Assembly: GCF_058153355.1 (NCBI RefSeq)
Contig: NZ_CM177019.1
Strand: one strand, 5' to 3'
DNA: 64,000 bases
The position numbers are program-made. This document shows, in pieces, positions 18,001 through 24,000 of the stretch. The number at the start of each line of letters is the position of its first letter. Positions within the stretch are counted from its first letter, which is position 1.

Positions 18001-21000
18001 ATTATTCGCGACGATCCACACGCCCTGCGCGCCGCATTTATTGAAGCTGATAGCCAGGCAGATGTGGTGATCAGTTCCGGCGGTGTATCGGTTGGTGAAG
18101 CGGATTACACCAAAACCATTCTCGAAGAGCTGGGTGAAATCGCCTTCTGGAAGCTGGCGATTAAACCGGGTAAACCGTTCGCGTTCGGTAAACTCAGCAA
18201 TAGCTGGTTCTGCGGCCTGCCGGGTAATCCGGTTTCAGCAACGCTGACCTTCTATCAACTGGTACAGCCGTTATTGGCAAAATTGAGCGGCAACACCGCC
18301 AGCGGCCTGCCCGCGCGTCAGCGCGTACGCACGGCTTCTCGCCTCAAGAAAACGCCTGGTCGCCTTGATTTCCAACGTGGTGTGCTGCAACGCAATGCTG
18401 ACGGTGAACTGGAAGTCACCACCACCGGGCATCAGGGCTCACATATATTTAGCTCTTTTAGCCTCGGCAACTGCTTTATCGTACTGGAACGCGAGCGCGG
18501 CAATGTAGAAGCGGGCGAATGGGTGGAAGTAGAACCGTTTAACGCGTTATTCGGAGGCCTGTAATGGCGGAACTCAGCGATCAGGAGATGCTGCGCTACA
18601 ACCGGCAAATCATTCTGCGCGGTTTTGATTTTGACGGTCAGGAGGCGCTAAAAGATTCTCGTGTGCTGATCGTCGGCCTCGGTGGACTCGGCTGTGCAGC
18701 TTCGCAGTATCTGGCAAGCTCCGGTGTCGGCAACCTGACGCTGCTCGACTTCGACACGGTTTCGCTCTCGAATCTGCAACGCCAGACTCTGCACAGTGAT
18801 GCCACGGTCGGGCAACCGAAGGTGGAATCCGCCCGAGACGCACTGGCGCGGATCAATCCACATATCGCGATTACGCCGGTAAATGCGTTGCTTGATGACG
18901 TGGAGCTTGCTGCATTGATCGCTGAACACAATCTGGTGCTCGACTGCACGGATAACGTTGCGGTACGTAATCAATTGAACGCTGGCTGTTTTGCCGCAAA
19001 GGTGCCGCTGGTTTCCGGGGCGGCAATTCGTATGGAAGGGCAAATCACGGTCTTCACTTATCAGGACGGCGAACCGTGCTACCGCTGCCTTAGCCGTTTG
19101 TTTGGCGAGAACGCGCTAACCTGCGTAGAAGCAGGCGTGATGGCACCGTTGATCGGGGTGATTGGTTCGTTGCAGGCAATGGAGGCGATCAAACTGCTGG
19201 CAGGTTATGGCAAGCCTGCCAGCGGCAAAATCGTCATGTACGATGCGATGACCTGTCAGTTCCGTGAAATGAAACTGATGCGTAATCCGGGGTGTGAGGT
19301 GTGCGGGCAGTAATTGCCAGCCCCAGGCCTGATAAGTCGCGACAAGCGTCGCATCAGGCATTTGCTCCAGACGCCAGATGCGGCGTGAACGCCTTATCTG
19401 GCCTACGGTTCGGGCGCAGATTTCCAGGCGCGGCAAGCGTTGGTGCCCTCCACCACGTTATCAGCAATTGATGAGGATGCAGAACGTCCTGTTAAATCGA
19501 CGTTCTGCCAAAAGCCCCCTGCCAGTCCTGCTCAAACTTCGCCACGGCGGCGTCAACTGCCGGATAGCTAATCATCTGCTGCGCCACATCCAGTGGCAGA
19601 GTAATTGATTCACATCCTGCCAGTAAGCAGTCCAGTGCCTGACGCGGGGTTTTGAAACTTGCGGCTAACACTTTCGCCTGCGGCGCATGCATTTTCAATA
19701 ACTGGTGTAAGTCGGTCACGGTTTGAATACCGCTACCGCCCTGAGCATCAATACGATTAACGTAAGGCGCAACATATTCCGCACCTGCCAGCGCCGACAG
19801 CAGCCCTTGTGCCGCGCCATATACCGCGGTTCCCAGCGTCGGAATCCCTTCCGCTTTTAACATCTTAATAGCTGCCAGCCCCTCGGCGGTCACCGGAACT
19901 TTCACCACGATATCAGCAATAATAGAGCGCAGCTTACGCGCGTCATTCACCATCCCTTCGGCAGTGGTAGCCATCACCTGGGCAAACAGACGCCCCTGAC
20001 CGCCCATCGCTTCGTGAAGCTCCGGAAGTACCACCTCCAGCGGTTTTTTACCCGCGGCGATAATACTTGGGTTAGTGGTCACACCCGCCAGCGGAAAAAT
20101 ACGTGACAGCGCCTTCACCGCAACAACGTCTGAAGTATCCAGATACAGTTCCATACCATCCTCAAAATGTACTTTTTGTCTGAATGTAGACTATCACGGG
20201 AAAACTCTCTGAACAGTTGACGCACATCAATCAAACTTTCATTCGAAAGTATTTTAATGTTTGAACGAAACAGAGAGGCAACTATGATTTTCAATATTCA
20301 GCGCTACTCGACCCATGACGGCCCCGGCATCCGCACGGTCGTATTTCTTAAAGGCTGTTCGCTGGGCTGCCGCTGGTGTCAGAATCCGGAAAGCCGCGCC
20401 CGCACGCAGGATCTGCTGTATGACGCACGTCTGTGCCTGGAAGGCTGCGAGCTGTGCGCTAAGGCCGCGCCGGAAGCGATTGAGCGCGCGCTGAATGGTT
20501 TGCTTATTCATCGGGAAAAGTTAACCCCGGAGCATCTGACGGCGTTAACCGACTGCTGCCCGACACAGGCGTTAACCGTGTGTGGTGAAGTGAAAAGCGT
20601 TGAGGAGATCATGGCGACCGTTCTGCGCGACAAACCGTTTTACGATCGCAGCGGCGGCGGCTTAACGCTTTCCGGTGGTGAGCCGTTTATGCAGCCGGAA
20701 ATGGCGATGGGGCTACTGCAAACCAGCCACGAAGCCGGTATTCATACTGCGGTAGAAACCTGTCTGCATGTGCCGTGGAAATACATCGCCCCTTCTCTGC
20801 CGTATATCGATCTGTTTCTTGCCGATTTAAAACACGTTGCCGACGTGCCGTTTAAACAGTGGACCGACGGTAACGCCGCCAGAGTGCTGGATAACCTGAA
20901 AAAACTCGCAGCGGCGGGGAAAAAAATCATCATCCGCGTGCCGTTGATTCAGGGCTTTAATGCCGATGAAACCTCTGTGAAAGCCATTACTGATTTTGCC

Positions 21001-24000
21001 GCCGACGAGCTGCACGTCGGCGAAATTCATTTCCTGCCCTACCACACGCTGGGCATCAACAAATATCACTTACTTAATCTGCCCTATGACGCCCCGGAAA
21101 AACCGCTTGATGCGCCAGAACTGCTCGACTTTGCCCTGCAGTATGCCTGCCAGAAAGGGTTAACCGCGACCTTACGAGGATAACAACCATGACCACACTG
21201 AAACTGGACACGCTCAGCGACCGCATTAAAGCGCACAAAAATGCGCTGGTTCATATTGTGAAACCGCCGGTCTGTACCGAGCGCGCGCAGCACTATACCG
21301 AGATGTATCAACAACATCTCGATAAGCCGATCCCGGTACGTCGCGCGCTGGCGCTGGCCCATCACCTGGCGAATCGCACCATCTGGATCAAACACGATGA
21401 GTTGATCATCGGCAACCAGGCAAGCGAAGTTCGCGCCGCGCCGATCTTCCCGGAATATACCGTCTCCTGGATCGAAAAAGAGATTGATGATCTGGCGGAT
21501 CGTCCGGGTGCAGGTTTTGCGGTGAGCGAAGAGAACAAACGCGTTCTGCATGAAGTGTGCCCTTGGTGGCGCGGTCAGACGGTACAGGATCGCTGCTATG
21601 GCATGTTTACCGATGAGCAAAAAGGCCTGCTGGCGACCGGTATCATTAAAGCGGAAGGTAATATGACCTCCGGCGATGCGCACCTGGCGGTCAATTTCCC
21701 ACTGTTGCTGGAAAAAGGGCTTGATGGTCTGCGCGAGAAAGTGGCGGAGCGCCGCATGCGTATTAACCTGACCGTGCTGGAAGATCTGCACGGCGAGCAA
21801 TTCCTGAAAGCGATTGATATCGTGTTGGTGGCGGTCAGTGAACATATTGAACGTTTCGCTGCCCTGGCGCGTGAAATGGCCGCTACCGAACCCCGCGAAA
21901 GCCGTCGCGATGAACTGCTGGCGATGGCCGAAAACTGCGACCTTATCGCCCACCAGCCGCCGCAGACTTTCTGGCAGGCGCTGCAACTGTGCTACTTCAT
22001 CCAGTTGATTTTGCAGATCGAATCTAACGGTCACTCAGTATCGTTTGGTCGTATGGACCAGTATCTCTACCCGTACTATCGCCGCGACGTTGAACTGAAC
22101 CAGACACTGGATCGTGAACACGCCATCGAGATGCTGCATAGCTGCTGGCTGAAACTGCTGGAAGTGAACAAGATCCGCTCCGGCTCGCACTCAAAAGCCT
22201 CTGCGGGAAGTCCGCTGTATCAGAACGTCACCATTGGCGGGCAAAATCTGGTTGATGGTCAGCCGATGGACGCGGTGAATCCACTCTCTTACGCAATCCT
22301 CGAATCTTGCGGCCGCCTGCGTTCCACTCAGCCTAACCTCAGCGTGCGCTACCACGCGGGAATGAGTAACGATTTCCTCGATGCCTGCGTACAGGTGATC
22401 CGCTGCGGCTTCGGGATGCCGGCGTTCAACAACGACGAAATCGTCATCCCGGAATTTATTAAACTCGGTATTGAACCGCAGGACGCTTACGACTACGCGG
22501 CGATTGGCTGTATCGAAACCGCCGTCGGTGGCAAATGGGGCTATCGCTGCACCGGGATGAGCTTTATCAACTTCGCCCGCGTGATGCTGGCGGCGCTGGA
22601 AGGCGGTCGTGATGCCACCAGCGGCAAAGTGTTCCTGCCACAAGAAAAAGCGTTGTCAGCGGGTAACTTCAACAACTTCGATGAAGTGATGGACGCGTGG
22701 GACACGCAAATCCGTTACTACACCCGTAAATCAATCGAAATCGAATATGTCGTCGACACCATGCTGGAAGAGAACGTGCACGATATTCTCTGCTCGGCGC
22801 TGGTGGATGACTGTATTGAGCGAGCGAAAAGCATTAAACAAGGCGGCGCGAAGTATGACTGGGTTTCTGGCCTGCAGGTCGGCATTGCTAACCTCGGCAA
22901 CAGCCTGGCGGCAGTGAAGAAACTGGTGTTTGAACAGGGCGCGATTGGTCAGCAACAACTGGCTGCCGCACTGGCGGATGACTTCGACGGCCTGACGCAC
23001 GAGCAGCTGCGTCAGCGGCTGATTAACGGCGCGCCGAAGTACGGCAACGACGATGATACTGTCGATACGCTGCTGGCTCGCGCTTATCAGACCTATATCG
23101 ACGAACTGAAGCAGTACCATAACCCGCGCTACGGTCGTGGTCCGGTTGGCGGCAACTATTACGCGGGTACGTCGTCTATCTCCGCTAACGTACCGTTTGG
23201 CGCGCAAACTATGGCAACGCCGGACGGGCGTAAAGCCCACACCCCGCTGGCAGAAGGCGCAAGCCCGGCTTCCGGTACTGATCATCTTGGCCCTACTGCG
23301 GTCATTGGCTCGGTGGGTAAACTGCCTACGGCAGCGATTCTCGGCGGCGTGTTGCTCAACCAGAAACTGAATCCAGCAACACTGGAGAACGAATCTGACA
23401 AGCAGAAACTGATGATCCTACTGCGCACCTTCTTCGAGGTGCATAAAGGCTGGCATATTCAGTACAACATCGTTTCCCGCGAAACGCTGCTGGAAGCGAA
23501 AAAACATCCGGATCAGTACCGCGATCTGGTGGTGCGCGTAGCGGGTTATTCCGCCTTCTTCACTGCGCTCTCTCCAGACGCACAGGACGATATCATCGCC
23601 CGTACTGAACATATGCTGTAATCTCCTTCGCCCGGCGGCGTCGTCGCCGGGCCAAATCATTCACATCATCAATTCCGCTCTCACTTTCATTCGAAATATA
23701 ATTTGTGCTCTGCGTCACATTGTTATTACACTGTTACGGTTTCATTTTCGAGCCAGGAGCACACCTATGAGCGTAAAAGTTATCGTCACAGACATGGACG
23801 GTACTTTTCTTAACGATGCCAAAACGTACAACCAACCACGTTTTATGGCGCAGTATCAGGAACTTAAAAAGCGCGGCATTGAGTTCGTTGTCGCCAGCGG
23901 TAATCAGTATTACCAGCTTATTTCGTTCTTTCCTGAGCTAAAGGATGAGATCTCTTTTGTCGCGGAAAACGGCGCACTGGTTTACGAACATGGCAAGCAA

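Follow-up and report, generated by a model that had tools for sequence, protein, structure and literature searches.

The 64,000-nucleotide (nt) stretch of contig NZ_CM177019.1 (GCF_058153355.1) analyzed here, referred to as the window and used for all coordinates given, carries two adjacent open reading frames (ORFs) on the plus strand, ybiY (20284..21183) and ybiW (21189..23621), encoding a glycyl-radical-enzyme activase and a glycyl radical enzyme (GRE). We consider it very probable that this pair is the Escherichia orthologue of ybiY-ybiW and constitutes the anaerobic 1,5-anhydroglucitol (1,5-AG) branch of radical-mediated glycolysis. The orthology of the pair, its intactness, its catalytic residues and its gene context are all seen in the window, while the function of YbiW, that of a C-O lyase opening the ring of 1,5-anhydroglucitol-6-phosphate (AG6P), comes from the literature. 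An original prediction made on this DNA had treated the substrate of the enzyme as unassigned, a view that arose because databases lag behind the literature: the substrate of YbiW has been known since 2024, and the pair is no longer a functional gap.

An intact and conserved activase-enzyme pair

The product of ybiY contains the Pfam domains Radical_SAM (E = 1e-12) and Fer4_12 (E = 4e-11) and its score with the NCBIfam profile TIGR02494 (glycyl-radical enzyme activating protein), 364 bits, is more than twice the cutoff of 174. The CxxxCxxC motif from which a radical S-adenosylmethionine (SAM) activase had been predicted corresponds to C25/C29/C32 in the numbering of the 299-residue protein (codons 20356-20379), and a GGE SAM motif is also present. 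A Cys-rich insert that PflA lacks contributes six extra Cys (C51, C55, C58, C91, C92 and C100), fewer than the eight of two full CX2CX2CX3C motifs. The closest solved relatives are structures of the activating enzyme of pyruvate formate-lyase (PFL), 3c8f and 8fo0, matched at E = 1e-24 only.

The ORF listing of the window places ybiW just 5 nt beyond ybiY, and its 810-residue product is, as anticipated, PFL-like: it matches Pfam PFL-like (PF02901; E = 3.9e-208) at residues 11-671 and Gly_radical (PF01228; E = 1.5e-32) at residues 688-792, and reaches 1405 bits with NCBIfam TIGR01774 (PFL2/glycerol-dehydratase-family GRE; cutoff, 678). The sequence RVAGYSA occupies residues 783-789 (codons 23535-23555), with the codon of G786 at 23544-23546; R783, V784, G786 and Y787 are invariant in an alignment of YbiW, PflD and PflB and fit the fingerprint RVxG[FWY]. 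The codons of C441 and E443 lie at 22509-22511 and 22515-22517, respectively. These domain and motif matches in both proteins are not attributable to chance.

Comparison with E. coli K-12 bears out the identification of the pair as ybiY-ybiW (b0824 and b0823). Gene order and relative orientation are the same, all catalytic residues are common to both strains, and the order iaaA-moeAB-fsaA-ybiY-ybiW-ybiV-ybiU is shared, running reversed around b0823/b0824 in K-12. YbiY is identical to its K-12 counterpart at 293 of 299 residues (6 amino acid differences) and YbiW at 805 of 810 (99.4%), the five changes (E184K, S190M, T235P, H474R and D769E) being conservative or of surface type and falling at positions that are likewise variable in paralogues and in 6xs4, an orthologue with 95% identity. 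The ybiW coding sequences differ at 106 nt (a DNA divergence of approximately 4.4%, mostly synonymous), and so large an excess over the 5 amino acid differences indicates strongly purifying selection. The window copy is thus intact, under purifying selection, and retains all catalytic residues. That the pair belongs to the conserved core, rather than being a novelty of this strain, was likewise borne out, all but one of the complete E. coli genomes having the locus (5425 of 5426).

Both ORFs had been placed within 20257-23621, limits that agree with the ORFs as listed, except that this start of ybiY is probably 27 nt too far upstream. The maximal ORF, 20257..21183, would encode 308 residues, whereas K-12 RefSeq (NP_415345.2) and the PGAP annotation of the closest genome both give a ybiY of 900 nt (299 residues), equivalent to a start at 20284. 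The ATG at 20284 is preceded, at a distance of 5 nt, by the Shine-Dalgarno sequence GAGAGG (20273-20278), and the TIGR02494 match begins only at residue 11 of the 308-residue ORF. When 104 distinct upstream regions drawn from different species are aligned, the consensus triplet at 20257 is ATC; in the window, the ATG there overlaps a conserved -10-like TTTAAT (20253-20258), and the transcription start site (TSS) proposed below, at about 20265, would fall downstream of it. On these combined grounds we reject the ATG at 20257, and the true start of ybiY is most likely 20284.

Antisense ORFs occur inside ybiY and ybiW, for example one of 316 residues at 21084-22034 on the minus strand; most likely they arise mechanically, from the codon bias of genes under constraint. 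The ybiW stop codon is followed at once by a G+C-rich hairpin (23630..23652, plus strand) that has a 10-bp stem and a folding energy of -21.2 kcal/mol (z = -5.4), lacks a U tract, and is kept in K-12. It was not reported by a terminator scan, and is possibly a weak or partial terminator ahead of the separately controlled ybiV, or a stabilizer of the mRNA 3' end.

Substrate assignment

The sugar alcohol 1,5-AG is found in food and blood. According to section 5.1 of the review PMC12441222, which summarizes Ma et al. (J Am Chem Soc 2024;146:26187; pmid 39283600), YbiW cleaves AG6P to 1-deoxyfructose-6-phosphate, and its paralogue PflD cleaves 1,5-anhydromannitol-6-phosphate, also to 1-deoxyfructose-6-phosphate. 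The same summary has 1,5-AG and 1,5-anhydromannitol phosphorylated by a phosphotransferase system (PTS) before cleavage, describes the YbiW and PflD reactions as glycyl-radical-dependent and strictly anaerobic, and credits the pathway with supporting anaerobic growth on 1,5-AG in E. coli and in many gut bacteria (PMC12441222). It thereby supplies both a definite substrate and a growth role, the kind of literature that the original prediction had named as refuting its view. Two further papers cite the 2024 work, and a search for additional secondary accounts of it found this review only. The review also presents 1,5-AG as a clinical marker of glycaemia, and AG6P as the cause of the neutropenia of glycogen storage disease type Ib and G6PC3 deficiency (PMC12441222).

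Protein names still in circulation convey little of this. YbiW is a "putative pyruvate formate lyase" in K-12 RefSeq and a "glycyl radical protein" under PGAP, and in our NCBIfam profile search no equivalog naming YbiW reached its cutoff. Crystal complexes with the substrate were reportedly part of the 2024 work; the top structural matches of the window YbiW are the YbiW entries 8id7 and 8yjn (both titled "Probable dehydratase YbiW"), and 8yjo is titled "Probable dehydratase PflD". A preprint of 2025-26 still describes ybiYW as functionally unannotated. This annotation lag is a practical lesson: in recent papers ybiYW, or the homologous gldA-fsaA-GRE-PTS islands of streptococci, still go unannotated or under the name PFL.

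Active site and proposed radical mechanism

A single Cys followed two residues on by a general-base Glu (C-x-E) defines the GRE 1,2-eliminases and dehydratases, which include glycerol dehydratase (GDH), propanediol dehydratase (PD), CutC and HypD. The best characterized structural relative of YbiW is the B12-independent GDH of C. butyricum (1r8w; E = 2e-163), which, together with the diol dehydratases (5i2a), belongs to the same TIGR01774 subfamily. An active-site comparison with characterized GREs, which the original prediction had proposed as a check, shows that the GDH catalytic positions are conserved in YbiW: G786 aligns with GDH G763, C441 with C433, E443 with E435, H165 with H164, H282/S283 with H281/S282, and Y344 with Y339. 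The Cys loop G-C441-I-E443 thus aligns with C433-V-E435 of GDH, and by this alignment YbiW is assigned to the C-x-E eliminase class and not to PFL. The enzymes differ around D447 of GDH: opposite W445-H446-D447, YbiW has the remodeled sequence GKWGYRCTGMS, into which two residues are inserted. Their chemistry would be alike, with abstraction of C-H beside a hydroxyl followed by beta C-O scission, except that in YbiW the leaving group would be a ring ether oxygen instead of a hydroxyl and the substrate a C6 sugar-alcohol phosphate; genomic context differs as well.

From the structures of substrate and product, and by analogy with GDH, a stepwise pathway can be proposed. Uptake and phosphorylation of 1,5-AG by a PTS encoded outside the window would yield AG6P. 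The [4Fe-4S] cluster of YbiY, bound at CX3CX2C, would reductively cleave SAM, and the 5'-deoxyadenosyl radical would take a hydrogen from Gly786 of YbiW, from which the radical would be relayed to Cys441. The Cys441 thiyl would abstract the C2 hydrogen of AG6P, and deprotonation of the C2 hydroxyl, assisted by Glu443, would give a ketyl radical able to expel the ring oxygen from C1 by beta C-O scission, much as in the B12-independent diol and glycerol dehydratases, save that the group expelled would be an ether oxygen and not a hydroxyl. The C1 radical would then regain hydrogen from Cys441, producing open-chain 1-deoxyfructose-6-phosphate. As C2 ends up as the product carbonyl, the two C2 epimers could yield a single compound, which fits a sequence in which hydrogen is abstracted at C2 and the C1-O5 ether bond then undergoes beta-scission.

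For the steps that follow, FsaA and FsaB are reported to cleave 1-deoxyfructose-6-phosphate to glyceraldehyde-3-phosphate and hydroxyacetone, the latter being reduced by GldA to 1,2-propanediol. FsaA, encoded by the divergent neighbor of ybiY, would accordingly perform the retro-aldol cleavage and feed glyceraldehyde-3-phosphate into glycolysis, with GldA acting on the hydroxyacetone; we infer these reactions from what Ma et al. reportedly found, from gene context and from the use of hydroxyacetone by FSAA.

The PflD/PflC pair of E. coli (b3951/b3952; 8yjo) offers an instructive parallel. PflD is 39% identical to YbiW, belongs to the same GRE subfamily, forms the same product, and has the Cys-x-Glu loop and RVAGYSAFF in common with it. 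Where YbiW has NGHS, PflD has NASS (H282 being replaced by Ala), and the two also differ around Y344 and in the 449-458 loop; the alignment makes it plausible that these three features determine the choice of C2 epimer. The paralogous K-12 locus, ordered gldA-fsaB-ptsA / frwCB-pflD-pflC-frwD, repeats the logic of the pathway in having a paralogous aldolase gene, fsaB, nearby, as fsaA is near ybiY. It differs from the ybi cluster in possessing PTS genes of its own (frwBCD, ptsA) and gldA, and in having no CTTTC-N4-GAAAG palindrome of the kind described below.

Alternative readings

The inherited names would make YbiW a pyruvate or 2-ketoacid formate-lyase and YbiY a PFL activase. Besides the K-12 RefSeq product names, this interpretation has in its favor the PFL-like and Gly_radical domains common to these enzymes and the title "Formate C-acetyltransferase" of 6xs4, and YbiW and YbiY indeed share with PflB and PflA the ten-stranded-barrel GRE fold family, RVxGY and radical-SAM activation. 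YbiW is, however, only 26% identical to PflB, and the vicinal C418-C419 of that enzyme, which catalyzes C-C cleavage, correspond to Gly-Cys in the loop G-C441-I-E, so that the Cys-Cys pair is absent. Its scores fall far under the formate C-acetyltransferase cutoffs (161.6 versus 994 bits for TIGR01255; 578.8 versus 1109 bits for NF007437), and the reaction summarized in the literature is a different one (PMC12441222). The Gly-Cys loop and low equivalog scores therefore exclude the legacy PFL reading, which we rate as extremely improbable. A small-molecule diol or glycerol dehydratase resembling the B12-independent GDH, as the UniProt/PDB-style name "probable dehydratase" might suggest, has in its favor the strength of the 1r8w match, the conservation of H164, H281, S282, Y339, C433 and E435, and membership in TIGR01774. 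This too is very unlikely: the W445-H446-D447 stretch is rebuilt with its insertion, the neighboring genes encode a sugar-phosphate aldolase and a sugar phosphatase rather than enzymes of 1,3-propanediol or propionaldehyde metabolism or microcompartment components, and the substrate assigned in the literature is AG6P (PMC12441222). The formate-lyase and glycerol-dehydratase readings were thus both rejected on the Cys-loop motif, HMM cutoffs, gene context and literature.

A third alternative accepts the cleavage of AG6P as real and supposes that its main role is detoxification, or that the enzyme serves a broader range of 1,5-anhydro- or 1-deoxy-hexitol phosphates, in place of a dedicated growth pathway. 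In humans AG6P is a hexokinase-inhibiting dead-end metabolite. Its toxicity in human cells is stressed in the review section cited (PMC12441222), the ybi cluster has no dedicated transporter or PTS comparable to the frw genes at pflD, and the sugar phosphatase gene ybiV has the same operator as ybiY. Against this stand the growth of E. coli and many gut bacteria on 1,5-AG by means of the pathway, according to that review (PMC12441222), and the adjoining aldolase, which channels carbon into glycolysis; we judge a primarily detoxifying or broader role to be unlikely. Assignment of the pair to anaerobic 1,5-AG catabolism must itself be set against several considerations. It draws on a secondary summary (PMC12441222) and on PDB titles; the PDB titles keep the wording "probable dehydratase"; the activity of this YbiW allele is presumed by sequence comparison with K-12; and the 64-kb window encodes no 1,5-AG PTS, uptake being assumed from K-12.

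A conserved, putative regulatory layout upstream of ybiY, ybiV and ybiU

The region upstream of ybiY contains an FNR-type box, TTGACgcacATCAA (20217..20230), with one mismatch to the consensus TTGAT-N4-ATCAA. Located 5 bp downstream is a palindrome, ACTTTCATTCGAAAGT (ACTTTC-ATTC-GAAAGT; 20235..20250), here termed operator 1, which precedes the -10-like hexamer TTTAAT (20253..20258, plus strand) of a putative ybiY promoter. The hexamer is conserved at 85-95% or more among 104 unique upstream sequences. Further palindromic operators occur 71 nt upstream of the ybiV ATG (operator 2, ACTTTCATTCGAAAT, 23683..23697) and 14 nt upstream of the ybiU ATG (operator 3, CTTTCGAACGAAAG, 24707..24720).

Conservation was measured in the 103 listed orthologous loci having at least 160 nt of upstream sequence, with shuffled sequences as controls. 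An FNR-type box with at most two mismatches is present in 100 of them (24 perfect; 12.8% in shuffled controls) and in register in 98, where its start lies at -67 to -74 relative to the ybiY ATG, mostly at -67 to -72, with a single outlier at -62; two matches out of register, at -102 and -117, are likely due to chance. Its half-sites are conserved and its N4 spacer is variable. CTTTC-N4-GAAAG is found in 101 of the 103 (90 perfect; shuffled controls, 0.5%), and the offset from FNR box to palindrome is 19 bp in 97 of the 98 loci with both elements in register. The fsaA-ybiY spacer of the window is identical to that of K-12 at 133 of 136 positions, compared with 95-96% for the flanking genes. Farther along the cluster, the palindrome recurs in 29 of 30 ybiW-ybiV gaps of other species, at -82 to -87 from ybiV, and in 25 of 26 ybiV-ybiU gaps; K-12 has an exact copy of operator 3 in a ybiV-ybiU spacer that has diverged from that of the window everywhere except in this palindrome. 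Counted across the window as a 13-mer with at most two mismatches, the motif is not significant alone (3 observed versus 2.5 expected); its signal lies in exactness, placement and cross-species conservation.

Published data bear on both elements. ChIP-exo of YciT, a regulator of the DeoR type, shows peaks upstream of ybiY/fsaA and of ybiV, and expression of these genes changes in a delta-yciT strain (PMC8464067). In a Reg-Seq preprint the ybiY promoter was active only anaerobically, and YciT was pulled down on a ybiYp bait near -5 of the predicted TSS. A companion preprint reports activator-like couplings at -30 to -15 and strong couplings at 0 to +20, and suspects that the TSS was misassigned. 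If transcription were to start at about 20265, roughly 19 nt downstream of the preprint prediction, the candidate FNR box would be centered at -41.5, as in class II promoters, the palindrome would span approximately -29 to -16, between the -35 and -10 regions, and TTTAAT would lie at -12 to -7. The palindrome is probably the YciT operator, and the FNR-type box probably the activator site of the Reg-Seq preprint. On the model that these motifs and the published data suggest, expression of ybiY is most likely anaerobic, from a putative class II FNR promoter that YciT would repress at the palindrome between FNR box and -10 hexamer. The conservation of the two elements is newly described here, and it is from this that we infer their function.

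Some results count against this regulatory scheme. The Reg-Seq preprint describes its activator-like footprint, at about -20 of the predicted TSS, with no factor assigned, and makes no mention of FNR; a literature search found no published link between ybiY and FNR, whose proposed role here derives from sequence alone. In K-12, no copy of the palindrome was found at the yciT promoter or at the pflD/fsaB locus; autoregulation and a shared regulon therefore gain no support, and the link to YciT rests on the published ChIP-exo and pull-down data.

Only tentatively, and with somewhat more doubt than conviction, do we suggest that fsaA, ybiYW, ybiV and ybiU form a single FNR-activated, YciT-repressed regulon, to which the one FNR box and all three CTTTC-N4-GAAAG operators would belong. 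Were this so, the activator of the Reg-Seq preprint would be FNR and the TSS predicted there would have to be moved about 19 nt downstream; YciT would act as sugar-phosphate sensor for the pathway, its inducer being AG6P or 1-deoxyfructose-6-phosphate; and YbiV and YbiU would belong to 1,5-AG metabolism, in which YbiV could provide a safety valve by dephosphorylating AG6P, in the manner of human G6PC3. The conserved layout provides cheap, testable hypotheses as to how the pathway is switched on.

Gene neighborhood

The pair is flanked by iaaA, moeA, moeB and fsaA on one side and by ybiV and ybiU on the other. Divergently oriented and 129 nt from ybiY, fsaA (19492..20154, minus strand) encodes fructose-6-phosphate aldolase 1 (220 residues; Pfam TAL_FSA, E = 9e-50; NF009296, 454 bits against a cutoff of 306), with 3 amino acid differences from K-12 FsaA. 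We propose that FsaA performs the step following YbiW, the retro-aldol cleavage of 1-deoxyfructose-6-phosphate. FSAA accepts hydroxyacetone as donor, and its role in vivo was called "enigmatic" in 2020 (PMC7767278). The streptococcal gldA-fsaA-GRE-PTS islands also have DeoR-type regulators.

Species-representative genomes were scanned with a degenerate pattern for the YbiY N-terminus, which yielded at least 120 loci. Divergent fsaA-ybiY-ybiW is the common arrangement, present in most of the 120 listed species loci across Enterobacterales, and in the listed loci of core Enterobacteriaceae ybiW is followed by ybiV-ybiU. In Mixta and Rouxiella, ybiU lies upstream, beyond fsaA, and not downstream. 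No fsaA was found within the several kb of available upstream sequence in Salmonella, Klebsiella and Raoultella (loci L047, L058, L060, L067 and L076), and the aldolase step must therefore be encoded elsewhere or be carried out by another enzyme; the listed loci of these genera retain ybiY-ybiW, the FNR box and the palindrome.

Downstream of the pair, ybiV (supH; 23767..24582, plus strand) encodes a Cof-type HAD sugar phosphatase with solved structures (1rlm, 2hf2) and is followed by a terminator-like hairpin at 24593-24612. The product of ybiU (24734..25993, plus strand) is a DUF1479/Gig2-like protein of 419 residues whose structures (2csg, 2dbi, 4rgk) carry no functional name, and a literature search on YbiU found no function. 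YbiU is only 82% identical to the 421-residue K-12 protein (approximately 74% in DNA), in comparison with 97-99% for the proteins of neighboring genes, and 94% identical to that of Escherichia sp. E1V33, which suggests that the window ybiU is an old divergent allele or a recombination import.

Wider features of the window

Between ybiU and ybiT lies an IS110-family element with an ORF of 326 residues (26263-27243, minus strand; Pfam DEDD_Tnp_IS110 and Transposase_20). The E. coli genomes that match here name the element IS621, and K-12 has no insertion there; the ybiU-IS621-ybiT arrangement is covered by 1023 of the 5426 complete E. coli genomes.

Among those 5,426 genomes, the best match of the window stretches compared (19400-24700, 24600-29400 and 50000-62000) is approximately 98.3%. 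Identity to K-12 is 92-98% per gene, and identities to E. albertii and Escherichia sp. E1V33 are 92% and 90%, respectively. With matches to E. coli of no more than about 98.3% and lower values for E. albertii and E1V33, the window derives from a divergent Escherichia lineage near a small group of genomes deposited under the name E. coli. The 50000-62000 stretch is covered to at least 80% by only 541 of the 5,426 E. coli genomes; matching annotations there place a "type III effector" gene among dinG, ybhF, rhlE and hlyD-like genes, and this stretch may be an accessory insertion.

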